Part shown: positions 128 through 58,052 of the stretch, in pieces
How positions within the stretch are numbered: the stretch's first letter is position 1
Layout: every line of letters begins with the position of its first letter
Origin: a virus
Taxonomy: Duplodnaviria; Caudoviricetes
Reading direction: 5' to 3' (one strand)
DNA: 58,052 nt
Virus record (IMG/VR): IMGVR_UViG_3300036770_003243
Span: 1-58,052 of that record
Notes under the pieces: generated by a model
The model's database searches: none
Told to the model about the DNA's origin: nothing
The model's input: only the letters and a program-made list of their open reading frames with translations
Program-made: the position numbers and the translations under genes

Positions 128-2409
128 AGCAGCTGGACGGCACAAGCCTCCTGCTCGTTGAAGTCGATGCTCTCGTCAAGAAGGCGAAGGCCATGCTCCC
201 GCCCGACGACGCCAAGACTGGAGACCAGTTTCAGGCTGCGCTGGACAAGCTGCCTTCCAAGGTCAAGGCCATCAAGGATGCGGAAGTCGCCCTGATGCGG
301 GCACAGCTTGGCAAGCAAGCCACATTCACGTTGGCCGAGAGCCACATCACGGGTCCGAATGCGAAGCGGATCACGTGGAAGGGTGCCGTCCCCGTGCAGA
401 ACCGCGTCGCGGTAGCGTCGCTGGACACGGGCACTGGCAAGGACACGTGGGAATATCCGATTCCCGACGTCTACCTCATGGACGGCCAGTACTTCCCGTT
501 CTCCCCTACGAGCAACTCCATCAAGAAGGTGGAGCCCTCTGACTGGCGGAACGTGACGTACGTTGCCGAGATCCCGGGGCTTGCCGACTACATCCCCCTC
601 AATTCCTACGACCAGTCTCACGGCAAGACGTCCTTCAACGGCCCCGGGCCAGATTCCAACGGCAAGACCGCAACAAAGCTCGAAGATCTGGGCAACTACA
701 CGTCCGAGAACGATAACGTGGTGTTCGAATCGGGGTCCATCTACGGATCCCCGCTTGCCCCCAAGAGGTCCAAGGTGGCCAACACGTTTCCTGCGGCGGA
801 TGGCGACTACGGCATCATCGAGCAGAACAAGGACATGGAGCCAGCGGCGCTTGAGCGCCTCAATGACCAGAGCATGCGGCTGCACGGCAAGCCCTACAAC
901 GGCATCGCCACCACGGGCGGACCAAACGGCACCCAGCGGTACACGCTGGGGTCAATGATTGCCTACGGACTGTGGCTGGATCCTGAGTGGGGAGGTGGAA
1001 ACCCATTTGATACCAAGTGGGCTTCCGTCGTGGCCGCATCCGTCGCACCGTCCTTGCGCAAGGCGCAGTCGACCTACCGCAAGGCGATCCAAGGCCCTGA
1101 CGGGGAGTGGACCAAGGCCAAGGATGCCAAAGCCCTCGTCATGGGGCTGCTCGACAACATCGCCCCCGTCCCCGTAGTCCCCGTCAAGTGGCAGGCTCTC
1201 GGGATCAAGGCCAAGGTGCTCCAGCCATCCTACGACTGGCAGGGCTGGACGAGCGTGATGATGGGCGATAGCCCTTGGCGCAAGAATCTCCTCGCCCTCC
1301 TCACGCAGCAGAACATGCAAGCGTGGAACCGCAAGTACAACGACCAGCAGCTGCTTGACCTCTACAAGGAGATCATCGACGCCCTCAAGGAGGCTTCGGA
1401 GGCCATGGACTCCAAGAAGTCGACCTACAGCAAGCTGTTCGCATGGACTCCGGGCAAGGGTGCGCCGCTGCCGTACCCGCTGGTCTACCCGATGGCCGAT
1501 GCGCTCGCTTCGGTTGCCAAGGTGGTGGCCGCAGACGCCACCTCCTCCGTGTCGGGGTTGAGCCCGCAGCAGATCACGCTTGTCGAGCTGCGGGCAAGGG
1601 CCAAGGCATCGACGCTGATCGCCATGAAGACGTCGGACATCGCAGCGTCGAGCCAGAGCACGACCGACGACATGATCAAGACGCTCAAGGAACTGGGGAA
1701 CACGCTGTACGGGTGCATGATCGGCCCAGCGCCTGAGGGTACCCCAGACCTCCTTGCCTACTACAAGGACGCCGTGCTGGCGTGCGCAAACAACCCCGCG
1801 CCTGACTCCATGGCGGGCCAGCTGGCGGCGCTTGTCGCGCAGTACGCTGAACTCAAGGCCAAGGCAGATGCGGGGGACGTCGAGGCGCAAGAGAAGCTGG
1901 CGCTACTTGCCGAGAAGATCAACTCCCGCAAGGAGGCGATGGGCGTGATGGTCGCCACCCGCGTATCCCGCCGCAAGCGGGCCACCGACAACACGACGGG
2001 CAAGGGTGGGACGAACGACATGCTCATCCGCAGCGAGAAGGCGATCAACGACTCCCGCCTCGATTCGATCCTCACCGTCACCGTCACTGGCAAGGACGGC
2101 AAGGGCGAGAGCATCGAGATTGTCATCCCCCCGACAAGCGAGGAGAAGGCTGCATCGGATGGTGCAAGCAGCGCCAACGATGCGACCGACGCCAGCATGC
2201 AGAACGGGGCAGCGTACGTCTACGGGGCTGGCGAGGGCCTCAAGATCCTGACGGAGAACTGGAAACTGCCGGTCGACCCGTTGATCTTGGATGACATCAA
2301 CAGCAACGCCAACGAGTCCAAGAAGGTGGTCACTCCAACCGAGAAGAAGGGTGGCGGCCTGCTGCTGCTCCTCTTGCTTGGGGCAGCCGCAGCTGCATCG
2401 CGAAAGTGA
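1..2409 (+). CDS. 3' part of a ~952-aa C-terminally membrane-anchored putative virion protein (starts at 57476, crosses the junction)
   Basis: Frame open from base 1; ends KKGGGLLLLLLLGAAAAASRK; helical/coiled-coil C-terminal half. Confidence 0.8.
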   Translation, partial: LAPIIALDKGKAAKSLESFLARLRIWPILNRIGFLAQNELDPQQLDGTSLLLVEVDALVKKAKAMLPPDDAKTGDQFQAALDKLPSKVKAIKDAEVALMRAQLGKQATFTLAESHITGPNAKRITWKGAVPVQNRVAVASLDTGTGKDTWEYPIPDVYLMDGQYFPFSPTSNSIKKVEPSDWRNVTYVAEIPGLADYIPLNSYDQSHGKTSFNGPGPDSNGKTATKLEDLGNYTSENDNVVFESGSIYGSPLAPKRSKVANTFPAADGDYGIIEQNKDMEPAALERLNDQSMRLHGKPYNGIATTGGPNGTQRYTLGSMIAYGLWLDPEWGGGNPFDTKWASVVAASVAPSLRKAQSTYRKAIQGPDGEWTKAKDAKALVMGLLDNIAPVPVVPVKWQALGIKAKVLQPSYDWQGWTSVMMGDSPWRKNLLALLTQQNMQAWNRKYNDQQLLDLYKEIIDALKEASEAMDSKKSTYSKLFAWTPGKGAPLPYPLVYPMADALASVAKVVAADATSSVSGLSPQQITLVELRARAKASTLIAMKTSDIAASSQSTTDDMIKTLKELGNTLYGCMIGPAPEGTPDLLAYYKDAVLACANNPAPDSMAGQLAALVAQYAELKAKADAGDVEAQEKLALLAEKINSRKEAMGVMVATRVSRRKRATDNTTGKGGTNDMLIRSEKAINDSRLDSILTVTVTGKDGKGESIEIVIPPTSEEKAASDGASSANDATDASMQNGAAYVYGAGEGLKILTENWKLPVDPLILDDINSNANESKKVVTPTEKKGGGLLLLLLLGAAAAASRK

Positions 2410-2512: not shown

Positions 2513-2914
2513 ATGATGCACCATCGGTACCGGTACATGGCAGGCGTTGACGACTACGACTGGAGCAAGTGGCCTTCGGGGTCATTCCCGTTGACTGAGG
2601 ATCTCAAGGTCAAGGCTGCGGCGATTGCCGACAAGTTCACCAGCGCGGCGGATGCGGACAAGTACATGGCCGAATCCTCCGATCCACTCGCCCTCAAGGT
2701 GGCGGTCCAATACGCGGCCACGGCCAAGAAGGCACCCACCTTCAAGCCGACGTTCACGTCTTCGGCCAGCCAGAGCGCGGCTGTGACGACCATGTACGAC
2801 GTCCCTGCGTCCACGACCCCGCCCCCTCCTCCTGCTGAGAAGGAGAAGAGCGAGACCCCGTGGCTGCTCATCGCTGGTGGCGCTGCCCTGCTGTTCCTGC
2901 TGATGCGCAAGTAG
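2513..2914 (+). CDS. Small tail-anchored membrane protein, paralog of the N-terminal domain of the junction-spanning protein
   Basis: AGVDDYDWSKW..DADKYMAESSDPL matches the 57476 ORF; C-terminal TM WLLIAGGAALLFLLMRK. Confidence 0.8.
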   Translation: MMHHRYRYMAGVDDYDWSKWPSGSFPLTEDLKVKAAAIADKFTSAADADKYMAESSDPLALKVAVQYAATAKKAPTFKPTFTSSASQSAAVTTMYDVPASTTPPPPPAEKEKSETPWLLIAGGAALLFLLMRK

Positions 2915-4539: not shown

Positions 4540-4595
4540 ACGACAATCAGCATTTGCAATAAATTTAGGGAGGGGCGATCCCCTTGGAGATAACC

Positions 4596-5366
4596 ATGCA
4601 CCTGACTGAGCAAGACAAGAAGGCGGCCAAGGATGGCTTCAAGTACGTGGTCGTCCGTGGCGGCAAGCGCGTCGCCTACACCACCACCGTGGCCGAGGGC
4701 AAGCGTGAGTGCGGCAAGACCGGTCGGGTCGTATCGATCGCTGGCATGACCTACGCTGCGCAGAACCCCGCCGCCAAGGCCAAGCGCCGCAACCCAGCGA
4801 CCTTCGGTGACCTGTCGATCGGTCAGGAGTTCGACTTTGTGTCGGGCACTTCCTATGACTCGTTCTACGATCGCTGCGTCAAGACTGGTGCGCGAACCTA
4901 CAAGCCAATCGAGGGGAAGCTGAAGGGCCATTCTCTGAAGGTCGGCAGCATCAAGGCTAAAGTCTATCATGTCGGCGGCGTGCGCAACCCCACATCGCGG
5001 ACGGAGGTACTGGCCAAGCAGTGGTACTACCTGACGGACGGCAATGCGCTCGTCCCTGTGGCACGCACCACCCACTTGCAGGCACTCAAGAAGGCCAGAG
5101 ACCTCGTCGAGAAGGACGTTGAGCTTCGGGGGATGCGCCTTGTGTCCGCGACGCAAGTCGCCAAGGACAAGACCCGCAACCCCAGCAGAGGTGCTGCCGA
5201 GGGTTCGGTAGAGAAGTTCATCAACGCCTCTGGCCAGACTGGCTGGCTGGTCTACGACCGCCACGGTCGCCGCGTTGGCTTCTATGCGAACAAGGCGCTC
5301 GCGCTTGAGGTGCTTGCCTCTGCCAACAGCAAGCGCCGCAACCCCGCCAAGCGGAGGCGTGCATGA
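4596..5366 (+). CDS. Basic RNP-repeat modular protein (putative core/DNA-binding)
   Basis: K/R-rich; four RNP motifs; SD GGAG. Confidence 0.7.
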   Translation: MHLTEQDKKAAKDGFKYVVVRGGKRVAYTTTVAEGKRECGKTGRVVSIAGMTYAAQNPAAKAKRRNPATFGDLSIGQEFDFVSGTSYDSFYDRCVKTGARTYKPIEGKLKGHSLKVGSIKAKVYHVGGVRNPTSRTEVLAKQWYYLTDGNALVPVARTTHLQALKKARDLVEKDVELRGMRLVSATQVAKDKTRNPSRGAAEGSVEKFINASGQTGWLVYDRHGRRVGFYANKALALEVLASANSKRRNPAKRRRA

Positions 5367-5692
5367 TGACGCAGTACCCGTACGGAATCGGAGGACGCCA
5401 CTTCGCGGGGCCAGAAGGCCCGCCTGCGGCGTTGACCGACCCGCTGGCCCAGATGATCTCGGACAAGATCAACAATGCCCTGCAAGGTGGCCCCAAGGGC
5501 TCGGAGCAGAACAAGGCGCAGGTCGAGTTCTTCAGCGACGTCTTGAGCTTGACGGGCCAGAAGTTTGTCGCCAGCGACAAGGGCAAGAAGGCAATCGATG
5601 ATGCCACGACAAAGGCCGTCTATGGCATCCTCGTCCCCTTGTCGTTGGCTGCCTTTGTGGCAGGATACCTGCTGGGCAGCCGCAAGGGGTGA
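5363..5692 (+). CDS. Tail-anchored membrane protein
   Basis: ATGA overlap with the upstream stop; HFAG leader; C-terminal hydrophobic helix followed by RKG. Confidence 0.75.
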   Translation: MMTQYPYGIGGRHFAGPEGPPAALTDPLAQMISDKINNALQGGPKGSEQNKAQVEFFSDVLSLTGQKFVASDKGKKAIDDATTKAVYGILVPLSLAAFVAGYLLGSRKG

Positions 5693-5695: not shown

Positions 5696-6265
5696 ATGAT
5701 GGTCGGGCACGGCACAATCAGCGCAAAGGCCCACGGCAGGGCCATGGGAGGCCCCAGCCTCGCGGGCGCTGACTTGGCCACGCTCCAGACCTTGCGCCAG
5801 AAGTACGGCGACGGGCCGCACAGCGGCATCAACGAGATCTCGGACATCATGTCCACGCTGGTCTACCCGCTGTTCACCGACAAGGACTGGCAGTACTGCA
5901 CGATCAACATGTGGCTCAACGGCGTCCCCAGCGAGGACGACCTGTCGTGGAAGGCCAAGTTCGGCTCCGAGATGCTCACGCTTGAGGAGCAATGTGGCGA
6001 CCACTCGTTCCTCAACCAGTACGATGCCGCCTTCGATGACTTCGCCGACAAGGGCGCGCCCAAGGAAGTCATCGATTGGCTGCGCCAGAAGGGCAAGACT
6101 ACCTACGAGAAGAAGATCAAGCTGACCGAGAAGGAAGGCGCAGAGGCCGTCAAGAAGGGCGTCGAGGCCGCAAAGAAGTCGGTCAACCCGTTCGAGAACC
6201 CGTGGGTGGTCGGCGGCATCGCCGCTGCCGTCGTCCTGCTGTTGCTGATCAAAACCAAGAAGTGA
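5696..6265 (+). CDS. Tail-anchored membrane protein
   Basis: SLAG leader; C-terminal WVVGGIAAAVVLLLLIKTKK. Confidence 0.75.
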   Translation: MMVGHGTISAKAHGRAMGGPSLAGADLATLQTLRQKYGDGPHSGINEISDIMSTLVYPLFTDKDWQYCTINMWLNGVPSEDDLSWKAKFGSEMLTLEEQCGDHSFLNQYDAAFDDFADKGAPKEVIDWLRQKGKTTYEKKIKLTEKEGAEAVKKGVEAAKKSVNPFENPWVVGGIAAAVVLLLLIKTKK

Positions 6266-6272: not shown

Positions 6273-6998
6273 ATGATGACTTGCGAGACGTGCAGCGGAT
6301 CGATCCCCGCCTACAAGACCTACACCCAGAAGGGCTACTACGATCCGCCGTTCCGCATCTCGGGGATGAGCGGCGCGATCGAGCAGACGGGCAAGTACAT
6401 GTGGCCCATTGAGGATCTGGACTCCTTCCCGTACGTGCAGTGGGTCGGCCCCGTCAAGATCCGCAGCAAGCCAGAACTCAAGAGCGAGCACATCATCGGC
6501 GACATCGACCAGAAGCGCGTCTACAAGGTGCTCGACTCCGCCCGCGAGAACTTCCCAGACTGGAAGTCGATGAAGGTTGGCGACTTCGAGACCTTCTACC
6601 TCCTGATCGGCGATGCCGAGACCGACGAGCAGATCGGCTGGGCCATCCCGCAAGAGTCCTACAAGTACGCTGACGACGGCTTTGTAGCCATGCAGTTCGG
6701 CGTGCGAGTGAACGGCGTCGCAGGGCTCAGCGCCGATAATCGCAAGAAGTATGAGAAGCTGCTTGCCGATGCCAAAGCGGCCTACGAGAAGCTCAAGGCT
6801 TCTGGCGGCGGTGGAGGCGGCGGTAAAGGCGGTGGTGGCGGTGGAGGCGGCAGTGGCGGCGGTGGGGGGGACAAGCCCCCGACCACGGTCAGCGACACCA
6901 AGAAGGAAGCCGACAAGAAGACCAGCAAGGGTGCCGGGTCCGGCGTCCTGCTTGCCTTGGCGCTTGGCGTCGGCGCTTACTTCATGAGCAAGAACTGA
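6273..6998 (+). CDS. Tail-anchored protein with possible SH3b-like domain and poly-Gly linker (paralog A)
   Basis: VKIRSKP..S..IG....VYKVL..GW pattern; Gly run; C-terminal TM; near-identical 5' half to 7024-7698. Confidence 0.7.
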   Translation: MMTCETCSGSIPAYKTYTQKGYYDPPFRISGMSGAIEQTGKYMWPIEDLDSFPYVQWVGPVKIRSKPELKSEHIIGDIDQKRVYKVLDSARENFPDWKSMKVGDFETFYLLIGDAETDEQIGWAIPQESYKYADDGFVAMQFGVRVNGVAGLSADNRKKYEKLLADAKAAYEKLKASGGGGGGGKGGGGGGGGSGGGGGDKPPTTVSDTKKEADKKTSKGAGSGVLLALALGVGAYFMSKN

Positions 6999-7023: not shown

Positions 7024-7698
7024 ATGATGACAAGCGAGACGTGCAGCGGTTCAATCCCTGCCTACAAGACCTACACCCAGAAGGGCTACTACGATCCGCC
7101 GTTCCGCATCTCGGGGCTGAGCGGCGCTATTGAGCAGACGGGCAAGTACCCGTGGGCCATTCCCGCCGACTACCCGTACGCGCAGTGGGTCGCCCCCGTC
7201 AAGATCCGCAGCAAGCCAGAGCTCAAGAGCGACCTCGTCATCGGCGACATCGACAAGAAGCGCGTCTACAAGATCCTCGCCACGGCCCGTGAGCACTTCC
7301 CAGACTGGAAGTCGATGAAAGGCGGCGACTTCGAGAGCTACTACGCCCTGATCGGCGATGCAGTGACTGGGGAGCAGGTCGGCTGGGCTATCTTGATGGA
7401 GGGCTACAAGACCTCCAGCACGGACGAGACAGGCGTCATCATGAATTTCGGAATCCGCCTCGCTTCCGATGTCCCCCTCAATGATGAGCAGTTCAAGACC
7501 TACGGAACCCAGCTCCTCGAGGCCAAGGGGGTCTACGACAAGCTCAAGGCCAAGCCTGCATCTAGCGACCAGAGCGCCACCAAGATCCCTGAGCCCCCGC
7601 CCGTCGCCAAGAAGAGCAGTGGGGGCATGGGAGTCGCACTGCTTGTCGCATTGGCAGCTGGCGTCGGAACCTATTTCTTGGCCAAGAAGGGAGCCTGA
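7024..7698 (+). CDS. Tail-anchored protein with possible SH3b-like domain (paralog B)
   Basis: Tandem duplicate of 6273-6998; C-terminal TM followed by KKGA. Confidence 0.7.
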   Translation: MMTSETCSGSIPAYKTYTQKGYYDPPFRISGLSGAIEQTGKYPWAIPADYPYAQWVAPVKIRSKPELKSDLVIGDIDKKRVYKILATAREHFPDWKSMKGGDFESYYALIGDAVTGEQVGWAILMEGYKTSSTDETGVIMNFGIRLASDVPLNDEQFKTYGTQLLEAKGVYDKLKAKPASSDQSATKIPEPPPVAKKSSGGMGVALLVALAAGVGTYFLAKKGA

Positions 7699-7699: not shown

Positions 7700-7894
7700 A
7701 TGATGACCAACGAGACCTGCGGGGGATCCGTATCCCCCGTTCCGAACTACAACGGCTACATCACGCCAGTCCACTCGACCGCAGGCATTGTGGGCGGCAA
7801 GCCAGAGAGCGACGGCGCAATGGCAAAGCTGCTGCTGCTGGGCGTCGGCGTGCTGGCCCTGTACTATCTGTTCCACAAGCGCAAGCGCGCCTAG
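7700..7894 (+). CDS. Small tail-anchored protein
   Basis: Starts MMTNETCGGS like the two upstream paralogs; TM followed by HKRKRA; SD GGAG. Confidence 0.7.
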   Translation: MMTNETCGGSVSPVPNYNGYITPVHSTAGIVGGKPESDGAMAKLLLLGVGVLALYYLFHKRKRA

Positions 7895-7907: not shown

Positions 7908-8027
7908 ATGGAAGGCCAGTTCAACGGGTACGTCCCAGCCAAGTACAAGGTGCCGCTCACCATCGGCGGCATCGTGATCTTGGGCGCGCTGGGCTACCTC
8001 GCCTACAAGTACATCAAGGTCAAATGA
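7908..8027 (+). CDS. 39-aa membrane protein
   Basis: SD AGGAGG; one TM plus basic tail. Confidence 0.7.
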   Translation: MEGQFNGYVPAKYKVPLTIGGIVILGALGYLAYKYIKVK

Positions 8028-8350
8028 CCCCCGTGGACAAGTCCCAGCAGGAGCGATTCCTGCGGGAGATTGTCCCCGCAGCGGCCTCCATTTGCCCTGA
8101 ATATGGGCTGGACCCCAAGCGGTGCATCATGGAGGGCGCGATGGCGTCTTCCTGCGGGCGATTCACCATAGGGTGGAACTGGTGGAACCTGCAAGGAGCG
8201 GGTGACGCTGGCTTCTACACGCTGGTCGTACCCGTCCGCAACGGCAACAGCAAGACGGGTGGGTGGGGCAGCATTGAGCAGAAAGTAGCCAAGTTCAGCA
8301 CTCCCTACGCGGCGGTCAAGGCTTGGTGCATGGCGCAGGGAGGACGGTGA
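8024..8350 (+). CDS. Divergent glucosaminidase/FlgJ (GH73)-like protein
   Basis: FLREIVPAA...YGL.P..I..GAMASSCG...NWWNLQG..KF.T pattern; the usual ES glutamate is not at its normal position. Confidence 0.45.
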   Translation: MTPVDKSQQERFLREIVPAAASICPEYGLDPKRCIMEGAMASSCGRFTIGWNWWNLQGAGDAGFYTLVVPVRNGNSKTGGWGSIEQKVAKFSTPYAAVKAWCMAQGGR

Positions 8351-8919
8351 TGCTGGCAATACGGGGTACGCAAAAGGTTCCGCTGACGTGGCAGTACGTC
8401 ACGCTCAAGAATCCGCTTGAGGTTACCGACCCGGGCAACGTCGCATCCAAGATGACGATCCCCGCTGGCACGGTGATCCGCCTCTACACGGGCGTCGTCG
8501 GCTATGCCAACGACGACAAGAGCAACCCGATCAAGACGCCCAACAGCAAGGGCTTCAGCCTGATCGAGACGTTGCCCGATAGCAAGTCGCTGTTCTGGAA
8601 CTACTACAAGGACGAGCCGCAGTACTACGGCCTGCTCCAGTCGCAAGACTACGCCAAGCTGGAGCCTGCGCGACTTGAGCACTTGTGGATGGTCCAGTTC
8701 CCGAAGTCGGATGGCAAATACAAGGACACCCTCGTCTCGCAGGCGATGGCGGACTACTACGACAAGCTCAACAGCGGCGTTGCGATCCCCAAGCCCGACG
8801 AGGCATCCAGCAAGGACGAGGAGAAGGATGGCGAGGGGGGCAGCTACATCCTCCCTGCGCTGGTCATCGGCGCGCTTGCGGGATTCGCCCTGTACCAAGC
8901 GGCCAAGGGCAAGCGATGA
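8350..8919 (+). CDS. Tail-anchored membrane protein
   Basis: Overlaps the upstream stop; C-terminal TM followed by KGKR. Confidence 0.7.
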   Translation: MLAIRGTQKVPLTWQYVTLKNPLEVTDPGNVASKMTIPAGTVIRLYTGVVGYANDDKSNPIKTPNSKGFSLIETLPDSKSLFWNYYKDEPQYYGLLQSQDYAKLEPARLEHLWMVQFPKSDGKYKDTLVSQAMADYYDKLNSGVAIPKPDEASSKDEEKDGEGGSYILPALVIGALAGFALYQAAKGKR

Positions 8920-20799: not shown

Positions 20800-21309
20800 A
20801 TGTTTGGCTTGAATGGCGTAGAGGAAGATCTGGAATCTCAAGGAAAGGCGGCTCTCAACGATGCCGCGAAGATCCAAGAGGAGCAGCTCAAGGAGTTGGA
20901 GAAGAGCAAGGACGTGCTCAAGACGGCGTTCGATGCGTTGACGATCGAGAACAAGGTCCAGATCGTGGCGGACTTCTTGGCCGAGCAGCGCAAAGACCCC
21001 CGAATCGCCAAACCGGACGACCCCAAGTGGGCAGCCACGACGTACGAAAAGCTGCTGGAGGACGCCAAGAAGAACCCCATGTGGTTCGGAGTCCTTGAAC
21101 TCGGTGCCTACCGGGACGAGCCTGCGGGGGCTGTTGGTCCCCGATTCGCTGCGTACGTGCAGAAGCGTTTGGATGGCAAGATCGGAAAGATGGTGCAGCC
21201 AACAGTCCGGCAACCCATCGAGAAGGAGCCCAAGTCTTCGGGGCCGTCTCCCCTCCTGATCATCGGCGGCGCGCTCCTGTTGCTGCTGCTCTTGCGCAAG
21301 AAGGACTGA
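20800..21309 (+). CDS. Tail-anchored membrane protein
   Basis: MFGLNG leader; C-terminal LLIIGGALLLLLLLRKKD. Confidence 0.75.
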   Translation: MFGLNGVEEDLESQGKAALNDAAKIQEEQLKELEKSKDVLKTAFDALTIENKVQIVADFLAEQRKDPRIAKPDDPKWAATTYEKLLEDAKKNPMWFGVLELGAYRDEPAGAVGPRFAAYVQKRLDGKIGKMVQPTVRQPIEKEPKSSGPSPLLIIGGALLLLLLLRKKD

Positions 21310-22957: not shown

Positions 22958-22964
22958 GAGCCTC

Positions 22965-23618
22965 ATGCCAAGCGCGGTCATCATTGGCGACAGCCACGTG
23001 GACGACTGGTCGCCGTTCGGAACCCGTCTCGCCAAGAACCTCAAGGCCGCCGGGTACGATGTGACCAAGCTCGGAGTCGGTGCAACCAGCACGGGCTCAT
23101 GGGCATACGGCAAGGCATGCCGTCCGAACAAGTCCAAGTGCGTAGACGTCGAGACGGATGTCCCCAAGGGCGCGGACGTCCTGCTGATCAGCCTCGGGAC
23201 CAACGACGCAGCCAACGCCCAAGCAGCCAAGTCGGACAGAGCCGCAGCCGCTGCCAAGACGACGGCGCGGATAAAGGCCATGGCCGAGAAGTACGAGGCC
23301 AAGCGCACCATCTGGATCCTGCCCCCGTGGCAGCGGGGCAACGTCAAGCACTACACGCAGGAGGCGATGGACTTCCTCTACGAGGTGGCGCAAGACGCGG
23401 GGGTGGAGCTGTTCGACAGCCGCGCCGCCACAGAGGCGCTGGTCAAGGGTGGCAGTGGCGACGGCGTCCACCTGCTCGGCAAGGGCGCTTCCGCTTGGGC
23501 CGACGCAGTTGCGGCTCAGGTCAAGGGAGAGGCCAAGGTGGCGGATGCGGGGTTCCCCATCTGGCCGATCCTGATAGCCGTTGTCGCCGGTGTAGTGCTG
23601 GCACGCCGCAAGGGCTAG
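22965..23618 (+). CDS. SGNH/GDSL hydrolase, tail-anchored
   Basis: IIGDSH, SLGTND, DGVH; C-terminal TM followed by RRKG. Confidence 0.88.
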   Translation: MPSAVIIGDSHVDDWSPFGTRLAKNLKAAGYDVTKLGVGATSTGSWAYGKACRPNKSKCVDVETDVPKGADVLLISLGTNDAANAQAAKSDRAAAAAKTTARIKAMAEKYEAKRTIWILPPWQRGNVKHYTQEAMDFLYEVAQDAGVELFDSRAATEALVKGGSGDGVHLLGKGASAWADAVAAQVKGEAKVADAGFPIWPILIAVVAGVVLARRKG

Positions 23619-29014: not shown

Positions 29015-29386
29015 ATGGCCACGTCGCCCGCCCGCCGCCCCAAGGAATCACAGGCGGGGCCACCAGACGGTTGGCAATCTTGGGGCCAGCACGTCTTGAG
29101 CGAGCTTGAGCGCTTGTCGCATGCCGTCGAGTCCGTCCGCGAGCAGGTTGCCGAGATCCGCCAAGACGGACGCGTGGCCCAGCACACCAGCGAGATCGAG
29201 GATCTCAAGGTGTGGCGCAAGGCGCACGACGAGGTAGCCACCCCCAGCCAGCTGGGCAAAGCACTTGACAAGATTGACGACCTGCGCACCACCCAGATCA
29301 AAGCCTACACCCTGATGGCGGTCGGCCAAGTCCTCCTGACCGCGCTTGGGGGTATCGTCCTCTGGTGGCTCAAGAAGGCTGGCTAG
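29015..29386 (+). CDS. Coiled-coil protein with C-terminal TM
   Basis: Heptads; TM followed by KKAG. Confidence 0.65.
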   Translation: MATSPARRPKESQAGPPDGWQSWGQHVLSELERLSHAVESVREQVAEIRQDGRVAQHTSEIEDLKVWRKAHDEVATPSQLGKALDKIDDLRTTQIKAYTLMAVGQVLLTALGGIVLWWLKKAG

Positions 29387-39529: not shown

Positions 39530-39551
39530 GTCCTTCTCCTCGTCCGCGCAG

Positions 39552-39616: not shown

Positions 39617-39633
39617 GCCCGCAGGAGGACACG

Positions 39634-42453: not shown

Positions 42454-42969
42454 ATGCGCAACGAGGAGCACGATATTCAAGCAAGGACGGTAGGTTACCT
42501 GCGTTCTGCGGGGGTGCGGTTCTTTGCCGTGCCCAACGGGGGCCTGCGCGACAAACGCACGGCGTGCCGCTTGTGGCAGCAGGGCGTCGAGGCTGGCGTG
42601 CCCGACTTGGTCATCATCGACCCACCGCCCGCGCTCAAGGGCTTCGTCGGCACGGTCATCGAGGTCAAGGCCCGCAAGGGAAGGCTGGACGCCGTGCAGG
42701 CCAGATGGCTGGAGGACTTCGCCATGCGCGGCTGGCTTGCGAGGTGCGTCCACGGCAAGGAGGCGCTCTTGGCGCTGCTGTGCGAGCTTGGCTATCTGGA
42801 CAAGGACAAGGTCACGCAGCGCGAGGGCGGAGCATCCTGCGCATCAGGCGGCGGCAGTAGCGCTCCGTCTCGTCTAGCGGAAGCCCCTGAGCGTGCCGCT
42901 GCCGCTCGTAGTCGTGCCACTGGCGCTCGACGGGCGCAGCCCAAGATGGCGCGGGGCGGGGCGGCGTAG
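42454..42969 (+). CDS. VRR-NUC nuclease
   Basis: E..IQ; VPNGG; GVPDL; IEVK...G.L...Q..W. Confidence 0.88.
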   Translation: MRNEEHDIQARTVGYLRSAGVRFFAVPNGGLRDKRTACRLWQQGVEAGVPDLVIIDPPPALKGFVGTVIEVKARKGRLDAVQARWLEDFAMRGWLARCVHGKEALLALLCELGYLDKDKVTQREGGASCASGGGSSAPSRLAEAPERAAAARSRATGARRAQPKMARGGAA

Positions 42970-44182: not shown

Positions 44183-44193
44183 GGGTTCCTCCG

Positions 44194-44222
44194 TTGACAC
44201 CGATTGCCTGTTTTGCCATTCT
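44194..44222 (+). promoter_or_regulatory. Promoter at the start of the morphogenesis block
   Basis: TTGACA-17-CATTCT with extended TG. Confidence 0.6.
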
Positions 44223-44261
44223 AGCCCGCGACATGGCAGATTCAAACCCAAGGAGCAGGAC

Positions 44262-45416
44262 ATGGCCACGAAGAAGGTAAACCCCGCGAACCCTTTGCCC
44301 ATTGACCCTCAAGCCCTGCCTGACGATGGCACCCCCGTCACGTTCAGCCAGACCTTCGCCAAGCACGTCGGCTCGGGCAAGGTGGACGACGAGCGCCTCC
44401 CCACAGCGGACGACTTCGAAGACGCGGAGTGGGAGATCCGCCGCCAGACCCCTGACGGCTGGGAGTTTGTCGAGCGAGTCGAGAACGGCATGCCCCTCGA
44501 CAACGAGCTTCGTGAAGACTACGGCCCGGGCAAGTACGAGCTGACCCCGATCGATCCCCGCACGGGCAGGCTTGTCAAGCAGGTGCGCAAGGTCCGCCTG
44601 ATCTCGGCCACCATCACGCCGACTGCATCCGTCCTGCCGTTCCCCGGCGGACGGGAAGAGCCGTACTACCCTCCGATGCCCGCCGCAACCGAAGAGGTCC
44701 CCGCGTGGATGCGATGGCAGATGCAGCAGGCAGCGGAGGAGCGCGCCGAGCAGCGCCGCCGCGCCGAAGAGGCGCTTGCAAGGCAGAAGGAGTTCGAGGA
44801 GAAGCTCGCCCTCCGCGAGTTCGAGCGGCAGGAGCGCGAGGAGCGCGAGCGCAAGCGGCGCGACGACATGGCTGCCGAAGAGGCGCGCCGCCGCGACGAG
44901 CGGTTCGGCCAGCTGCTATCGGCAGGACTTGGCTTGGCACAAGCGTTCTTCACTGGCCAGAACCGCAACCAGCAGCCGCAGAAGGACGTCAACGAAGTCC
45001 TGCTGCGCGAGCTGATGGAGGAGCGCCGATCGCGCACCCCTCAAGCCAACGGCATGCGCGACAGCCTCGAGTTGCTGATGGTGCTGGACAAGCTGGCCGA
45101 GAGCCGCGCTGCGCGGGACAGCCGCCCCTCGCGTGACGATGACGACGACGACGACGACTCGATGAAGCAGTTGCTCGTAGGAATGCTGCCTGCCATGCTG
45201 GGGCGTGGGGGTGGAGGCGGCGGAGCGCCGCAGCTTCCAGATGCCATGGTCGACCAGATGATCGAGCAGGCGTTCCAGAACCCCGCAGTGATCGAGAAGG
45301 TCGCCATGCGCAACCCCAACGGCATCGCAGGCGCGTTCATGCGAGCCATCAAGGCCAACCCCGCTCTGGAGAAGGCCGTGCTGGAAGCTGTAGAGGGCTC
45401 CAGCGAAGAAGATTGA
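44262..45416 (+). CDS. Coiled-coil protein with acidic tract
   Basis: SD AAGGAG; long E/R helix; poly-Asp. Confidence 0.75.
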   Translation: MATKKVNPANPLPIDPQALPDDGTPVTFSQTFAKHVGSGKVDDERLPTADDFEDAEWEIRRQTPDGWEFVERVENGMPLDNELREDYGPGKYELTPIDPRTGRLVKQVRKVRLISATITPTASVLPFPGGREEPYYPPMPAATEEVPAWMRWQMQQAAEERAEQRRRAEEALARQKEFEEKLALREFERQEREERERKRRDDMAAEEARRRDERFGQLLSAGLGLAQAFFTGQNRNQQPQKDVNEVLLRELMEERRSRTPQANGMRDSLELLMVLDKLAESRAARDSRPSRDDDDDDDDSMKQLLVGMLPAMLGRGGGGGGAPQLPDAMVDQMIEQAFQNPAVIEKVAMRNPNGIAGAFMRAIKANPALEKAVLEAVEGSSEED

Positions 45417-45423: not shown

Positions 45424-46068
45424 ATGGCTGAGTACGCAGAAGTCGCAACACGCACCAAGCACGAAGGGGCGCTCGATAAGGCGATCCTGATGAGCGAGAT
45501 CGCGGACTCGATGGTCACAGACCGCGAGTTCAGCGAGTTCGTGATGCGCAAGGTGGCGGGTGCGGGCAACGCGGCTGATGCGCAGGTCATGGAGTGGGCC
45601 AAGTTCGTCGAGTCCCTGCCCTACCGCCGCGAGAGCGGCGAGGTCTACCGCAGCTGGCAGTCCTGCGTAGGGTATCCCAATGGGCAGCCTGCGGGCGGTG
45701 ACTGCGACGATCTCACGATCCTGCTCGTCGCGGGATGCCGTAGCCTTGGCCTGCAATCGATGGTCGAGATCCTCAAGGACTCGGATGGGTGGGGCTTCCA
45801 CGTGAGGGCACGCGTCGGCCTCCCCCCGCATCGGCCCACCTATTGGGCCGTCGTGGATCCCGTATGGCGAAGCGAGCGCGAGTGGGCAATGGACGGAAAG
45901 CCGCTAGAGCAGAGCCCGTTGTACCAGAATTCACAGATGCAGCCCCAAGTACAGGGGCAATCGTACTTCATCACCCCCAGCAGCCCGTTCTCGAAGCCGA
46001 GCTTCTTGACCCACCTGTTGACGTTGTCGGCAGGAGTGGGGATCGGGATGTGGTTGAGGCGGAAGTAG
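45424..46068 (+). CDS. Transglutaminase-like (papain-fold) Cys protease, tail-anchored
   Basis: GDCDD (Cys), FHV (His), VDP (Asp); C-terminal TM followed by RRK. Confidence 0.8.
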   Translation: MAEYAEVATRTKHEGALDKAILMSEIADSMVTDREFSEFVMRKVAGAGNAADAQVMEWAKFVESLPYRRESGEVYRSWQSCVGYPNGQPAGGDCDDLTILLVAGCRSLGLQSMVEILKDSDGWGFHVRARVGLPPHRPTYWAVVDPVWRSEREWAMDGKPLEQSPLYQNSQMQPQVQGQSYFITPSSPFSKPSFLTHLLTLSAGVGIGMWLRRK

Positions 46069-46147: not shown

Positions 46148-46906
46148 GTGAGCGACTTCCAGCGGCTTGCAGATGCGCTTCGGGCCAAGGCCCGCAACGA
46201 GATCACCACGCAGATCAACGGCCTCCTGCCGTCCCAGCTGCGCGTCAACCCCACCGACTTGGACGAGGACGACGGTGACGATGGTGAAGATGGGGACGAT
46301 GACGACGATGACGATGACGACGAGGGGACATCCCTGTGCTTTGAGTACCCCGACGCCGATCGCAACCTCGCCTCCGCCGCCGCTGCTTGGCGTGCCCTTG
46401 GCAGCGAGGGCGACGTGGTGGCGACCTACAAGGACGGGCGGGCGTACTTCGGAAGCGTAGAGGATCTGGAGGACTACAACGACGGCAACGATCTGGACCC
46501 CGACGAGTGGGAGGTCTACGAGGACGCCGACGAGATCATGGGTCTGGACTACGATCGGAGCGCCCTGTCCCGTGTCCTGCGCCTCGCAGAGGAGCATGAG
46601 GGCGCGTACGAGGAGGCGAAGCGCCAGTACGAGCAATTCCACTGGGGCGACCGCAGCACTACGACCACGATCAAGGAAATTCCCGGCATCGACGGCCCAG
46701 TGGTGGCCCTTGGCGTAGCTCGGAGGATCGAGTACGGCAGCAAGAAGGACGGAAAGTGGGAGGAGTACTACCACCTGTTCGGTGAGGAGTCCGACACGTT
46801 CCCGACCATCTACGCGGCTGGAACCCCCGATCAGAACGGGCATTATCGGACGCTGGTCATCCACGGCGGTGGCATGCACGTCGAAGATCGCGGCGTCGTG
46901 GATTGA
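46148..46906 (+). CDS. Very acidic protein with a compact C-terminal domain
   Basis: SD GGAGG plus GTG; D/E run of about 20 residues. Confidence 0.75.
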   Translation: MSDFQRLADALRAKARNEITTQINGLLPSQLRVNPTDLDEDDGDDGEDGDDDDDDDDDEGTSLCFEYPDADRNLASAAAAWRALGSEGDVVATYKDGRAYFGSVEDLEDYNDGNDLDPDEWEVYEDADEIMGLDYDRSALSRVLRLAEEHEGAYEEAKRQYEQFHWGDRSTTTTIKEIPGIDGPVVALGVARRIEYGSKKDGKWEEYYHLFGEESDTFPTIYAAGTPDQNGHYRTLVIHGGGMHVEDRGVVD

Positions 46907-47027
46907 TCGATCGGCAGCGAGAGAAGGCACATTTGACACTTGATTCGCTTTTGACTTGCCCCCTAGCCTTCAGCGAGCGGGGGCGGATGTCGTCACCCCG
47001 ACAATTCTACCTTCTCAGAGGTCTACG

Positions 47028-47678
47028 ATGATCAAGCGTCTGAAGCACCGCCGTACCAGCGGCACCCTCGTCGCCAACCCGCGTCGCAAGAAGCGCAGTG
47101 GGGCCAAGCGTGGAAAGCGCCGCAGCCTGCGCGCCCTGTTCGCCAACCCCCGCCGTCGCAAGAAGCGCAAAAACCCCTACCATGGGATCAAGAGCAGCGC
47201 CAAGCGTCACCGCAACCCCAGCCGCCGTCGCAAGCACCGCAACCCGGGTCTGGAGATCGGCGGCGTGGATCTGGTGAGCGTTGGCGTCGGCTCGGTCGCC
47301 GCCATCGCGCTGGGTTCGGTCGGTCAGGGCATCTTCGACAAGTACCTCGCCAAGAGCTTCTCGGACAGCCCGATCGCCAAGGCCATGCCGAGCCTGATCG
47401 TTGCTGGCGCGGCCTTCGCGGCGCACAAGTACATCGCCAACCCCAAGGTCAAGAGCATCGCCAAGGTCACTCTGGTGCTCTCGATCTTCAAGGCCATCGA
47501 TGACTCGGCGGGCGACAAGATCCGCGACACCGTCAAGGACGTCCTGCCGGGTTCGACCAGCGGCTCGTACCTGCCCGCTCTGCGTGGCTACACCAGCGGG
47601 GCCTACATGGACTCGACTGGCGGCGCGTTCATGTCGACCAACGGCATCCTCCCGGGTGCGGGCCTGTACGGCCTGTAG
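47028..47678 (+). CDS. Protamine-like NP-repeat membrane protein upstream of the capsid candidates
   Basis: R/K-rich N terminus with five NP motifs; hydrophobic helices; C-terminal TSGSY/TSGAY/TGGAF repeats. Confidence 0.75.
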   Translation: MIKRLKHRRTSGTLVANPRRKKRSGAKRGKRRSLRALFANPRRRKKRKNPYHGIKSSAKRHRNPSRRRKHRNPGLEIGGVDLVSVGVGSVAAIALGSVGQGIFDKYLAKSFSDSPIAKAMPSLIVAGAAFAAHKYIANPKVKSIAKVTLVLSIFKAIDDSAGDKIRDTVKDVLPGSTSGSYLPALRGYTSGAYMDSTGGAFMSTNGILPGAGLYGL

Positions 47679-47764: not shown

Positions 47765-48457
47765 ATGGCACAGACGATCTTTGAACAGCTCGCTCCGTAT
47801 GCGGGCATGACCGTGGTCCCCGGTGTGACCGTGGGGCGGCTGAATTACGCGAACCAACAGGACAGCTTCTCGGATGCGGCGTTCTCGACCACCCTGCAAG
47901 TGGTCAACGCCAACACCGAACTCCAGTTCTTCACCTCGGCCATCGCCGAGACTGGTCAGGGATGGTCGACTGGCCTCTCGCTGACCCAGACGAACTCGAA
48001 GTTCTCGAAAGGACAGCCCCCGGCCAACCAGTGCCTCGTATCGACCCACCTCGGCGTTGCGCTGTACGTCACCAACGATCTCAGCCCCGCTGGATCGCAG
48101 GACATCACGCTCCTCTCGGTGCGTGACACCTTCTCGATCCTGCAAAACTTCAGCTGGGATTTGCAGATCGGTCGCGGCATCACCCGTACGATCGGCTCGC
48201 TGCTGGAGTACCCGGCGGTGGGTGGTGCGTGGTCGACCACCAGCACGACGGGCGGCAACGGATCGGCCCAGAACGGCGTCCCCGCTTGCCACACGGTCAA
48301 GCTGCCGATCCCGATCATCTTCCCGCCCTTGGTCAACGTGGGCCTGACGGCGAAGTGTGGCAACGCCTTCAGCTTGCAGGATGTCTCCGCGCAGGCGAAC
48401 ACCAACATCGTCGTCCGGTTGACTCTGGGCGGCTTCCTCATGACCATGCCGGTCTAA
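47765..48457 (+). CDS. Putative major capsid protein 1 (single jelly-roll inferred)
   Basis: Beta-rich, no TM, SD AAGGA; paralog of the next gene (MTVVPGVTVG, GQG..QTN, TMPV end). Confidence 0.6.
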   Translation: MAQTIFEQLAPYAGMTVVPGVTVGRLNYANQQDSFSDAAFSTTLQVVNANTELQFFTSAIAETGQGWSTGLSLTQTNSKFSKGQPPANQCLVSTHLGVALYVTNDLSPAGSQDITLLSVRDTFSILQNFSWDLQIGRGITRTIGSLLEYPAVGGAWSTTSTTGGNGSAQNGVPACHTVKLPIPIIFPPLVNVGLTAKCGNAFSLQDVSAQANTNIVVRLTLGGFLMTMPV

Positions 48458-48485: not shown

Positions 48486-49271
48486 ATGGCTATCAAGAAC
48501 GAGCAGTTCCTCAAGGAATTGCAGCCCTACAGCAAGATGACGGTGGTCCCCGGTGTGACAGTCGGCGACCTGAACTTCGCCTCTGCTCAGAGCGCGTACA
48601 GCACCACGTACATCGCTCCGCAAGCCAACGACCAGTTCGCTGCCAACCGCGAGGCGGATCTCTTCCAAGCCGCGATCGGCGACAACGGTCAGGGTCTGGC
48701 CTCGGGTCAGGTCATGAGCCGCGCCCAGACCAACTGGCTGGACACCGCTGGTCGTCTGCCGGCCAACGAAGTGTTCTTGGGAATCCGCTGCCTCGTGAGC
48801 GTCTACAAGCACACGAACGCCCCGTTTGCGACCCTCGCCAACGGCGCTTCGTTTGCCAACGTGACGACCACGTTCAGCAAGCAGATGCCGATCACGAACG
48901 TCGCGGCTGTGTTTGCGATCATCAACGGCTTCAGCTGGGAGTACCAAGTCGGTGACGGCATCATCCGTAACGTCGGCGCTCTTGCGGGTTATCCGCAGGG
49001 CGGCGGCGTGTGGTCGTCCCCCGTCGCTGCCTTTACCACCGCAGAGGCTGCGCAGAACGGCTACCCCTGCCCGACCGTCGCCAAGGAGCTGCCGATCCCG
49101 TTTATGTTCCTCCCGAACATCAACACCCGGGTCAAGGTCAAGAGCGGCTCGCAGATCAACGTGCCCGCTGGCACGTTCAACCTCGGCGCTGGTGGCGCGG
49201 AGCCCGTTGTGGCGGACTTCCTCGCGATTCGGATGACCTTCCAAGGCTACAAGCTGACCATGCCGGTCTAA
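48486..49271 (+). CDS. Putative major capsid protein 2 (single jelly-roll inferred)
   Basis: Paralog of 47765-48457; SD AAGGAG. Confidence 0.6.
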   Translation: MAIKNEQFLKELQPYSKMTVVPGVTVGDLNFASAQSAYSTTYIAPQANDQFAANREADLFQAAIGDNGQGLASGQVMSRAQTNWLDTAGRLPANEVFLGIRCLVSVYKHTNAPFATLANGASFANVTTTFSKQMPITNVAAVFAIINGFSWEYQVGDGIIRNVGALAGYPQGGGVWSSPVAAFTTAEAAQNGYPCPTVAKELPIPFMFLPNINTRVKVKSGSQINVPAGTFNLGAGGAEPVVADFLAIRMTFQGYKLTMPV

Positions 49272-51717: not shown

Positions 51718-52695
51718 ATGATGGTCAACAAGAACTCGGCGGTCCACTTCTACGGTCGCCGCCCCCATCTCGCTGGAGAGCTGGGAGCGCACTACGCGGG
51801 GTACGAACCCCCGCCGCGCTCCCCGCACCATCTGGCTGGCCCCCTCAAGTCCGCAGGGCAGCTGTACATGCCGGGGTCGCAAGGGACCGCTGCGGTCGGC
51901 GGGATTCTTGACCAGTTTGTCACCAAGGGCATGACCGTCCTCAAGACGGCGTTCCCCGTGCTCGGCAATGCGCTGTCCTTTGTCGGAGACATTGCGAAAT
52001 TCGTCTTGGAGCCGATGGGCAACTTGATGGAGTCGATGGTCTTCGGCGCGGCAACCTATCTGGAGCTGCCGCAAGCAGAAGCCGTGATCAAGGACATGCA
52101 AGACAACTGGTCATCCTATGCCAAGGACGCCTTCATGGACTTCCTCTACGCCTTCTACAGGCGAGTGGGGTCAACGGGCAAGACGGTGGTGGACCTCAAG
52201 GAAGGCCGCGATCCCATCTTGCAGGGCGCGATGGGTGGTGCCCTTGACATGATGGGCATCGGACGCAACTCCAACCGCGTGGCAAACCGCATCTATACCA
52301 AGGCAATCGCTGCGGGGGCAAAGGACTGGCAGGCAGCTGCCGCCGTCTGCTACGGCCTGCTCAAGGGCCTCCAGATCAAGGGATTCCCGTCTGGATTCAA
52401 GCTCAACGTCAAGGGTGTCGACGTCCTGACCGTGACTGGCTCCGATACGAGCAAGGCCATGTGGGTACTGGGCAACGACTTCGACCTCCTGTACTTCGCC
52501 AAGCTGGGACCGAAGTCCTCAGAATGGCACTCACTGGCGTGGGTCGAGAAGCAGTACAAGAGCAAGAGCGGCGGTGTGATGGGTGGGGGAGCTGATACCG
52601 TCAGGACGCCCCCAGCCGCCAAGACAAGTGGCGGTGGGTTGTTCCCCCTGCTGGCGGTCGCTGGCGCTGCGATTCTTGCAATGAGGGGGAAGTGA
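51718..52695 (+). CDS. Tail-anchored membrane protein with repeated HLAG/HYAG leader
   Basis: Three H-[LY]-AG motifs; C-terminal TM followed by RGK. Confidence 0.75.
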   Translation: MMVNKNSAVHFYGRRPHLAGELGAHYAGYEPPPRSPHHLAGPLKSAGQLYMPGSQGTAAVGGILDQFVTKGMTVLKTAFPVLGNALSFVGDIAKFVLEPMGNLMESMVFGAATYLELPQAEAVIKDMQDNWSSYAKDAFMDFLYAFYRRVGSTGKTVVDLKEGRDPILQGAMGGALDMMGIGRNSNRVANRIYTKAIAAGAKDWQAAAAVCYGLLKGLQIKGFPSGFKLNVKGVDVLTVTGSDTSKAMWVLGNDFDLLYFAKLGPKSSEWHSLAWVEKQYKSKSGGVMGGGADTVRTPPAAKTSGGGLFPLLAVAGAAILAMRGK

Positions 52696-57475: not shown

Positions 57476-58052
57476 ATGCTGATCTACAATCCGGGAGAGC
57501 GCCTGCAATCTTCGGGGTTCATCGCCGGTGTCGCGGACTACGACTGGGACAAGTGGGAGGGCGCGCCCATCACGGATGCGGACAAGGCCAAGGCCGCCGG
57601 CATCGCTGACGGGTTCAAGTCGCAGGCTGACGCTGACAAGTACATGGCCGAGTCCAGCGACCCCTTGAAGATCAAATTCTTGGTCCAGTACGCAGTGACG
57701 GCCAAGAAGAAGCCCGCATTCCAGACCACCTTCACGTCGTCCGCGCAGCTCGATGCATCGGCGGTCAACGTCCTCCTGCCCAAGGGCGGCATGACGGTGC
57801 TGAACGCTCCTGAGACCCTGCCCCAGCAGAAGAGCAAGGCTGCCAACGACATCCTCGCGTCCTTGATGACGGATAGCGTCAAGAAGGCGATCCCACTCAA
57901 CGCCCTCAACACCTACATCGGCGAGCTTGCGCCGATCATCGCACTGGACAAGGGCAAAGCGGCAAAGAGCCTCGAGAGCTTCCTTGCACGATTGCGAATC
58001 TGGCCGATCCTCAATCGCATCGGGTTCTTGGCCCAGAACGAGCTGGATCCCC
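57476..58052 (+). CDS. 5' part of the ~952-aa junction-spanning membrane protein (continues at 128-2409)
   Basis: ATG after GGGGGA; my translation MLIYNPGERLQSSGFIAGVADYDWDKW... stays open and in frame with base 1. Confidence 0.8.
   Translation, partial: MLIYNPGERLQSSGFIAGVADYDWDKWEGAPITDADKAKAAGIADGFKSQADADKYMAESSDPLKIKFLVQYAVTAKKKPAFQTTFTSSAQLDASAVNVLLPKGGMTVLNAPETLPQQKSKAANDILASLMTDSVKKAIPLNALNTYIGELAPIIALDKGKAAKSLESFLARLRIWPILNRIGFLAQNELDP

Follow-up and report, generated by a model that had tools for sequence, protein, structure and literature searches.

The stretch analysed here, called the window below, covers a virus record of 58,052 bp from end to end (GC content 0.636) and is a complete genome. 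The gene at 45424-46068, on the plus strand, encodes a 214-amino-acid enzyme with a transglutaminase-type fold, a Cys94-His126-Asp145 triad, and a C-terminal membrane anchor, and is the second gene of a late block that runs from about 44.2 kb across the end of the record to about 8.9 kb. The first 127 bp of the record are repeated exactly as its last 127 bp (1-127 and 57926-58052), and a relative, contig G001, has a repeat of 123 bp; the 127-bp direct terminal repeat indicates a genome that is either circular or terminally redundant. About ten late proteins that are tail-anchored but not homologous to one another have an N-terminal leader in two parts: Met-Met or Met-Leu with a short conserved stretch comes first, and a hydrophobic-x-Gly end follows after 6-34 residues. 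The enzyme is a candidate peptidase for this leader.

The enzyme and the tail-anchored proteins

At least 134 metagenomic homologues of the enzyme (E up to 0.01) were found in the protein collection; their contigs reach about 115 kb, with many in the range of 40-60 kb. Two homologues are named "transglutaminase-like putative cysteine protease" by a source, and among the 120 matches listed six have a precomputed assignment to Pfam family PF01841 (Transglut_core). The catalytic triad and tail anchor, both named in the original prediction, are borne out by conservation. The motifs GGDCDD (Cys94), GFHVRA (His126), and VVDPVW (Asp145) are invariant in 32 of 32 aligned homologues, the strictly invariant residues being G91, G92, D93, C94, D95, D96, H126, R128, D145, P146, and V147. 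By eye, the C-terminal hydrophobic stretch is kept in 30 of the 32; P0037 and P0042 stop before it. The enzyme itself scores 17.3 bits against PF01841 (E 0.0058), under the gathering cut-off of 23, and this was the only family found in a Pfam scan at E up to 10, with no match to DUF920. A sequence search of solved structures gave no match, nor did a tblastn search of the phage collection at E up to 1, and PHROGs yielded nothing useful.

An AlphaFold (AF2) model with a predicted local distance difference test score (pLDDT) of 89 consists of three N-terminal helices, a helix with the Cys at its start (94-107), three strands that carry the His and the Asp, and, at the end of the chain, a helix spanning 194-213. 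In Foldseek, two viral pseudomurein endoisopeptidases came out on top, PeiP (8z4f, E 4e-4) and PeiW (8jx4, E 5e-3). VIA gave Z scores of 12.2 to the putative protease 3kd4 (root-mean-square deviation, rmsd, 2.7; 126 residues aligned), 10.8 to the putative protease 3isr, 8-10 to FXIII, TG2, and TG3 (about 135 residues), 8.0 to PeiP, 7.6 to PeiW, about 7.8 to N-acetyltransferases, and 7.8 to LapG. Among predicted viral structures (BFVD), the best match was I1ZBG7, of 304 amino acids (E 5.5e-6), and Q77WJ4 also matched. We regard it as settled that the enzyme has a transglutaminase/papain-type fold with a Cys-His-Asp triad.

The gene is present in all three related contigs that were compared (G001, G002:C30, and G003:C48), where it is the only protease-like gene common to them, and it adjoins the capsid genes wherever a contig includes these. 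A complex prediction that paired enzyme residues 1-178 with residues 1-60 of the 5363 family (see below) scored 0.00, which is below the mark and informative neither way. Residues 43-48 of the enzyme (45550-45567) read V-A-G-A-G-N and lie in a loop between helices 34-44 and 51-64; by eye, most of the 32 homologues retain the Gly that precedes [NS]-x-A-D. This loop could be a self-processing site, though it is modelled with high confidence.

The original prediction had counted about 14 open reading frames (ORFs) that end in a single helix plus basic residues and have no signal peptide. The number is exactly 14, identified here by the first position of each: 57476, 2513, 5363, 5696, 6273, 7024, 7700, 7908, 8350, 20800, 22965, 29015, 45424, and 51718. 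All have a C-terminal hydrophobic window with a mean Kyte-Doolittle value of 2.0-3.0 (1.46 in 45424) and one to four Lys or Arg among the last eight residues. No N-terminal hydrophobic segment was found in any of the 14 (maximum at most 1.27) except 7908, a product of 39 amino acids whose sole helix falls within the N-terminal window examined. Eleven of the ORFs belong to the late block and three lie elsewhere (20800, 22965, and 29015); G001 and G002:C30 have the same kind of tail-anchored genes at the same place.

The genes that follow are all on the plus strand. A 952-amino-acid protein is read across the 127-bp terminal repeat, its 5' part (57476..58052) encoding the leader MLIYNPGERLQSSGFIAG and then a V.DYDW domain, and its 3' part (128..2409) ending in GGGLLLLLLLGAAAAASRK. 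A 133-amino-acid paralogue of its N-terminal domain is encoded at 2513..2914, with the leader MMHHRYRYMAG and an ATGATG start preceded by a Shine-Dalgarno site. Next come proteins of 109 amino acids (5363..5692; leader MMTQYPYGIGGRHFAG) and 189 amino acids (5696..6265; leader ending in PSLAG, at residue 24), a protein of 241 amino acids with a 34-residue leader, MMTCETCSGS...RISGMSG (6273..6998), its 224-amino-acid paralogue, with leader end RISGLSG (7024..7698), and two small proteins of 64 amino acids (7700..7894; leader MMTNETCGGSVSPVPNYNG) and 39 amino acids (7908..8027; leader MEGQFNG, the G001 counterpart having MMHSTNG-Y). The 189-amino-acid protein at 8350..8919 has the short leader MLAIRG; its ORF had been predicted to start at 8323, but the Shine-Dalgarno site CAGGGAGGA places the true start at 8350. 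A 325-amino-acid protein of the conserved late block (51718..52695) has the leader MMVNKNSAVHFYG, with an invariant Gly13, and a 169-amino-acid protein encoded beside the M15 peptidase gene (20800..21309) starts MFGLNG. Two tail-anchored proteins have no leader: an SGNH/GDSL hydrolase (22965..23618; Pfam PF13472, E 4e-9) and a 123-amino-acid protein recognized by hydropathy (29015..29386). The position of the leader-bearing proteins in the late block suggests that they are particle proteins.

The leaders of 6273, 7024, and 7700 start alike, with MMT-x-ETC-x-GS, and contain one or two Cys. In the 6273 protein, moreover, 21 consecutive residues are all Gly but for a single Lys and a single Ser. 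As an explanation of the tail anchors, known C-terminal sorting signals (LPXTG, PEP-CTERM, GlyGly-CTERM, and similar ones) were considered and rejected: ten of the tail-anchored proteins gave no NCBIfam match at E up to 1, and an N-terminal hydrophobic segment is absent. A lipoprotein lipobox was likewise rejected, since a Cys follows the Gly in one leader only (G001, YALSG-C) and there is no hydrophobic core.

A GGAGG-like site lies 5-10 nt upstream of each proposed leader start (TAGGGGG is the Shine-Dalgarno sequence before that of 57476), and the leader codons have an in-frame GC content at third positions (GC3) of 0.72-0.91; on both grounds we take the leaders to be translated. Seven genes (2513, 5363, 5696, 6273, 7024, 7700, and 51718) start with ATG-ATG, the ribosome site standing before the first ATG in each, and two (57476 and 8350) with ATG-CTG. 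Across the window, G001, and G002:C30, with orthologues included and starts chosen automatically by Shine-Dalgarno score, an M-[ML] start was found in 11 of 26 tail-anchored proteins versus 7 of 184 others (Fisher p 2e-7; 18-fold enrichment). One of those seven others is the large tail-anchored protein of G001, and 57476 of the window was lost from the count in de-duplication.

Conservation of the leader end

The leaders had been described as ending in hydrophobic-[ASN]-G. Our own Gibbs motif sampler, applied to 40 residues of 24 N-termini, recovered x-x-[LIFT]-[ANS]-G, in most proteins at the sites first proposed. Its score of 157.2 was reached by none of 40 shuffles (140.3 +/- 3.0, maximum 149.3); a search at width 4 was weaker (131.2 versus 125.1 +/- 3.1, maximum 129.9) and was again matched by 0 of 40. 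The contrast is less striking in a simple tally, plain hydrophobic-A-G occurring in 16 of 29 tail-anchored N-termini versus 34 of 177 that are not tail-anchored. Comparison among homologues tests the motif more strongly.

In the 5363 family (25 sequences), Ala15 and Gly16 of [LMF]-A-G are at least 90% conserved, the leader before A-G takes three variant forms, and insertions and deletions follow directly after it. In the family's most distant sequence, that of G002:C30, HTAG stands slightly later, by a few residues, and directly before the conserved helix. The paralogues 57476 and 2513 had been noted to resemble each other from the AG motif onward and to differ in their leaders, and BLASTP agrees: the alignment (E 1e-31) begins at FIAG/YMAG, and the preceding 14 and 7 residues are unaligned.

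The N-terminal part of 57476 has 19 homologue representatives, and 15 large proteins, those of the window and G001 included, were aligned. A Gly occupies one column, at position 10-18, in 14 of the 15 (as LAG, TAG, LHG, LNG, SLG, or TLG), and 12 start with ML[IL][YFH][NSD]. A hypervariable stretch of Pro, Ala, and Gly follows the Gly, and then a conserved block, LLPxGGxxVL. The exceptions are P0176 and P0179, which start (M/V)F.P yet have a Gly-ended stretch, and P0178, which has none. The V.DYDW domain ([VA]xDY[DNE]W) is directly preceded by Gly in all ten proteins that have it.

The 51718 family (18 sequences) has its first 18 residues conserved. G13 of F-Y-G (residues 11-13) and L18 are invariant, and M1, M2, N4, A8, Y12, R15, and P16 are at least 90% conserved. 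The sites originally picked in this protein, HLAG, HYAG, and HLAG, did not survive comparison with these homologues, among which A19-G20 is not conserved (LAG in five, LAS in five, others in eight) and the third site varies as L-[AGHE]-[GAN]; the invariant site is F-Y-G. The proteins 6273 and 7024, with their long leaders, are alike in all but 2 of their first 40 residues and 56% identical overall. Look-alike leaders also occur on unrelated proteins: MMLHDDPYALSG in G001 and MLLHDDNPSFLAG in P0173.

Taken from the 5363, 57476, and 51718 families, Gly at P1 of the putative site is the constant, P3 is usually hydrophobic, and P2 is free (A, S, N, H, Y, L, or R). The shared Gly of the original motif is thus upheld, and conserved in the 5363 and 57476/2513 families, with P2 looser than the [ASN] first proposed.

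A candidate mechanism and its alternatives

We propose that the front of the leader brings the tail-anchored proteins into a forming patch of viral membrane, as a counterpart of the capsid-targeting sequence of T4, and that the leader would then be cut off after its Gly by the membrane-anchored transglutaminase-fold enzyme, enzyme and substrates being held on the same face of the same membrane. That the leader is a functional signal of some kind is very probable. The chances that it is cut and that it is kept seem to us evenly balanced, and its removal after Gly by the 45424 enzyme is a real possibility that falls somewhat short of probable.

The comparison with T4 is prompted by the layout of the leaders, whose front is conserved and whose back ends in Gly, and by their presence on unrelated proteins of a single assembly. 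In T4, the targeting sequence is a propeptide of 10 residues common to unrelated internal proteins; its front targets, and its last residues direct processing (PMC9026906). The window virus likewise places the same two-part N-terminal leader on non-homologous proteins. T4 differs in cutting after Glu and in sending its cargo to the head interior, not to a membrane; the leader of the window ends in Gly, and its cleavage is inferred. The T4 prohead protease, gp21, is a serine protease unrelated to the transglutaminase fold.

The enzyme is favoured as the leader cutter by two considerations, its standing as the sole protease-like gene common to the relatives and the precedent of LapG, which is of the same fold. 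LapG removes an N-terminal piece of the membrane-associated LapA and needs its Cys to do so (PMC3032545). It shares the core fold (Z 7.8, rmsd 4.0, 115 residues aligned) and Cys-His-Asp triad of the enzyme; it differs in being periplasmic and soluble, without a tail anchor, whereas the enzyme has a C-terminal anchor, no N-terminal hydrophobic segment, and no DUF920 match. The cut site of LapG is a di-alanine. The original prediction drew its parallel instead with vaccinia I7 and the adenovirus protease. These two and pS273R of African swine fever virus (ASFV) are cysteine proteases that trim particle proteins at Gly motifs with an upstream hydrophobic residue, in membrane-containing or jelly-roll viruses; all three belong to clan CE, with triad order His-Asp-Cys and a Ulp1-like fold. 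The parallel holds as an analogy only, for the order in the window enzyme is Cys-His-Asp in a transglutaminase core, and any likeness would be convergent.

The nearest characterised relative of the enzyme appears to be gp34 of the Salisaeta phage SSIP-1, a phage available in culture, whose icosahedral particle has an internal membrane and capsid proteins of two types (PMC6356626, PMC6260650). SSIP-1 gp34 is annotated as "structural protein" in its record, has the motifs MADCDG, DHVYV, and LDPT, and ends in LLGGGILLGGGYLIAQSSK. An hhalign comparison with the enzyme gave E 0.0012 at a probability of only 19%, with the three catalytic residues aligned (GGDCDD/MADCDG, FHVRA/DHVYV, VDPV/LDPT). Both proteins have a hydrophobic C-terminal helix plus Lys, and both are encoded upstream of structural genes in a circular double-stranded DNA genome; they differ in length (304 versus 214 amino acids) and have no BLAST-level similarity. 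We take the BFVD match I1ZBG7 to be gp34, from its equal length of 304 amino acids and the style of its accession.

No other pair of SSIP-1 and window proteins was found to be similar. Both genomes encode many tail-anchored ORFs; in SSIP-1, six of the seven that pass the hydropathy threshold are convincing, with gp34, gp53, and ORF 50 added by eye. A G-[LM]-G motif lies in the first 45 residues of 4 of the 57 SSIP-1 proteins, all four in the structural block and three of them tail-anchored (ORF 36, 22845-23201; gp37, 23394-23783; ORF 52, 38636-39223; and gp53, 39223-39777, in the SSIP-1 sequence, L024). The window has hydrophobic-x-G after a Met-Met start in place of G-[LM]-G, which suggests that different lineages use different Gly motifs. 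The relationship to gp34 of an internal-membrane phage, along with capsid candidates that are weakly jelly-roll-like, makes it plausible that the particle of the window virus contains a membrane.

Several points weigh against the proposed cleavage. The below-cut-off Pfam score of the enzyme is one, and the fold leaves the chemistry unfixed, with transglutaminases, PeiP/PeiW, and N-acetyltransferases all close matches. The end motif carries little information: hydrophobic-A-G is present in 19% of N-termini that are not tail-anchored, and [LMIFVY]xG occurs within the first 45 residues of 34 of the 57 SSIP-1 proteins. The AG sites first picked in 51718 vary among homologues (LAG, LAS, LYY, LTH, LPH), the G001 orthologue having LEG at the third LAG of the window. 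The source gene call for this ORF (P0144) starts at Met51 and so omits the leader; Met51 has no GGAGG-like site upstream. The counts for the M-[ML] start and for the motif search include orthologues, so that the sequences are not independent. Long, strongly conserved leaders such as those of 6273 and 7024 suit a retained functional tag equally well. A protein without a signal peptide should keep its bulk in the cytoplasm, which in PRD1-type assembly is the space between membrane and capsid, whereas basic residues after the helix would, by the positive-inside rule, speak for the opposite topology of enzyme and substrates.

The conserved leaders could accordingly be read as a retained assembly or targeting tag, with the enzyme as a particle-associated cell-wall peptidase or isopeptidase for entry or exit, anchored in the viral membrane like the lytic enzymes of membrane-containing phages. 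The leaders of 51718 and 6273/7024 are strongly conserved over their whole length, as a tag might be; PeiP and PeiW are the top Foldseek matches (E 4e-4 and 5e-3), Q77WJ4 is among the BFVD matches, and gp34 of SSIP-1 is annotated as structural. The conserved Gly, however, stands exactly at the boundary of leader and body, with insertions and deletions right after it, and has the look of a cleavage site; the genome already has an M15 peptidase with a peptidoglycan-binding domain and an SLT transglycosylase, and VIA scored two putative proteases higher (Z 12.2 and 10.8) than PeiP (8.0). PeiP and PeiW resemble the enzyme in being virus-encoded and in their transglutaminase core, but their identity to it is only 16-18% and they have no tail anchor. 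They come from viruses of methanogens and cut archaeal pseudomurein, whereas the window virus has bacterial murein enzymes (M15, SLT). We consider this explanation possible but doubtful. It is quite unlikely that the enzyme is a true transglutaminase or deamidase that cross-links or modifies the leader proteins (for example, leader Gln to capsid Lys) and so fastens the membrane to the shell. FXIII and transglutaminases 2 and 3 do match at Z 8-10 over about 135 residues, and many leaders have Gln or Asn at positions 3-6 (MMTQYP, MMINQN, MMVQES, MEGQFNG), yet no leader family has an invariant Gln, position 4 of the 5363 family being also M or H and position 5 of the 51718 family Q, K, N, or R; it is Gly that stays constant.

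If the leaders are cut, a host protease or another viral enzyme could do so and the transglutaminase-fold protein be unrelated to the process, which we think unlikely. Host processing of phage proteins has a precedent in Staphylococcus phage 80alpha, processed by the host protease Prp, and ORF 2860 of the window carries HELGH, a motif like that of zinc proteases, at residue 96 of the longest ORF. Against this, G001 has leaders but lacks HExxH, and the transglutaminase-fold gene is kept in all relatives found; the HExxH of ORF 2860 was rejected as a shared peptidase, no G001 protein having an H[ED]xxH motif. Least credible is that the motif has no function and arose from composition, the choice of gene starts, and common ancestry. 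Gly and Ala abound in a genome of 64% GC, the background of the plain motif is high, and several of the proteins counted are orthologous; yet none of 40 shuffles reached the motif score, the M-[ML] start is enriched 18-fold, and the Gly is kept amid changing neighbours in three families whose genes were called by independent gene finders.

Removal of the leader by the tail-anchored enzyme would have a wider bearing. We suggest, tentatively and with less confidence than for the window itself, a widespread and hitherto unrecognised maturation system of prokaryotic membrane-containing tailless viruses, in which a tail-anchored transglutaminase-fold peptidase trims a T4-like, Gly-ended leader; as part of the same joint reading, it would parallel, by convergence and with an unrelated enzyme, the proteases of adenoviruses, poxviruses, and asfarviruses. 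The literature searched, which took in no supplements, contained no maturation protease or targeting propeptide of membrane-containing bacterial viruses, and the original SSIP-1 protein data could bear directly on this. The main text of a 2019 review of membrane-containing phages, searched by term, makes no mention of protease, proteolysis, cleavage, or processing (PMC6356626). In the model of a 2018 review, the protease of eukaryotic jelly-roll viruses came from a eukaryotic transposon and was gained only after these viruses had left bacteria (PMC6260650). If the mechanism is correct, bacterial jelly-roll viruses came independently to mature their particles with a membrane-bound cysteine peptidase, a system new to such viruses for which the cultured SSIP-1 offers an experimental handle. 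Many of their unannotated small membrane proteins would gain a function; the combination of tail anchor, leader, and transglutaminase-fold gene would be a signature for a virus group missed by hallmark-gene methods; and cargo might be loaded into viral membranes with the leader as its tag.

The virus group and other late genes

The window belongs to a family of bacterial viruses not described before. Their genomes, about 52-59 kb long, are circular or terminally redundant, and the viruses probably have an internal membrane and capsid proteins of the jelly-roll type. Among 31 proteins scanned, Pfam identified a family A DNA polymerase, a D5-type primase-helicase, a PD-(D/E)XK nuclease, helicases, a tyrosine integrase, and two DNA methylases, besides the M15 peptidase with its peptidoglycan-binding domain, the SLT transglycosylase, and the SGNH hydrolase; no terminase, portal, or HK97-type capsid protein was found among the 31. 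The murein enzymes and GGAGG-type ribosome sites point to a bacterial host. PHROGs assigned no family to nine of ten late proteins and gave one weak match, of unknown function, to the other, and a search of the phage collection with 18 kb of window DNA found no match.

A single relative was recovered from the 2.9 million contigs of IMG/VR. A genome scan found two real relatives, in bins labelled Myxococcales and Acidimicrobiaceae, labels that we do not take as hosts. A metagenome scan with the 5363-family alignment found two loci only, each 44% identical to the query, as is the G001 copy. One is on a contig of 58,649 bp, close to the 58,644 bp of G001, and both are probably the same virus as G001.

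The core of the late block common to G001, G002:C30, and G003:C48 comprises a helicase (42812-44302, minus strand), the ORF upstream of the enzyme gene (44181-45416), the enzyme gene, two further ORFs (46148-46906 and 46956-47678), a pair of capsid candidates, and ORF 49370, which follows that pair. The candidates, of 230 amino acids (47765..48457) and 261 amino acids (48486..49271), are encoded side by side on the plus strand and are paralogues with 37% identity and a shared end, MTMPV. The 261-amino-acid protein has a low-confidence model (pLDDT 53), of which all the best VIA matches are jelly-roll capsid or cement proteins, with SPV1 at the top (6oj0_T, Z 7.0, rmsd 4.0, 145 residues aligned) and others at Z 5-6.8; the nearest named Atlas clusters, PM2 P2 and PRD1 P3 at 0.76-0.77, serve as a lead only. 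With moderate confidence, we consider the pair to be probable single-jelly-roll capsid proteins. Profile comparison of the candidates with SSIP-1 gp45, gp46, and gp47 revealed no similarity.

A regular-expression scan of the late block (44181-8919) found no convincing Walker A motif of a packaging ATPase; the one clear Walker A in the pattern scan is that of the primase-helicase at 39854. SSIP-1 differs in this respect, its gp40 carrying GEKGSGKST, and the packaging ATPase beside the capsid genes of Sphaerolipoviridae-like membrane viruses, which have two single-jelly-roll capsid proteins, was likewise not seen in the pattern scan of the window.

The products of 44181-45416 and 46148-46906 contain acidic runs of eight and nine consecutive Asp, the former with a Glu/Arg-rich coiled-coil-like stretch as well; both are possible scaffold proteins. 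A SNF2-family helicase (55041-57467; Pfam E 1e-37) lies inside the late block and is absent from G001. A basic motif, [KR]-N-P, mostly in the form (K/R)(K/R)RNP(T/S), occurs 22 times in the proteome versus 3.4 +/- 1.8 in shuffles, and 18 of the 22 are in four late proteins (2860-4539, 4584-5366, 46956-47678, and 52692-53735); it may serve core proteins in DNA binding or as a linker, or mark a further processing site. The product of 2860-4539 contains two DUF6900 domains (E 2e-27).

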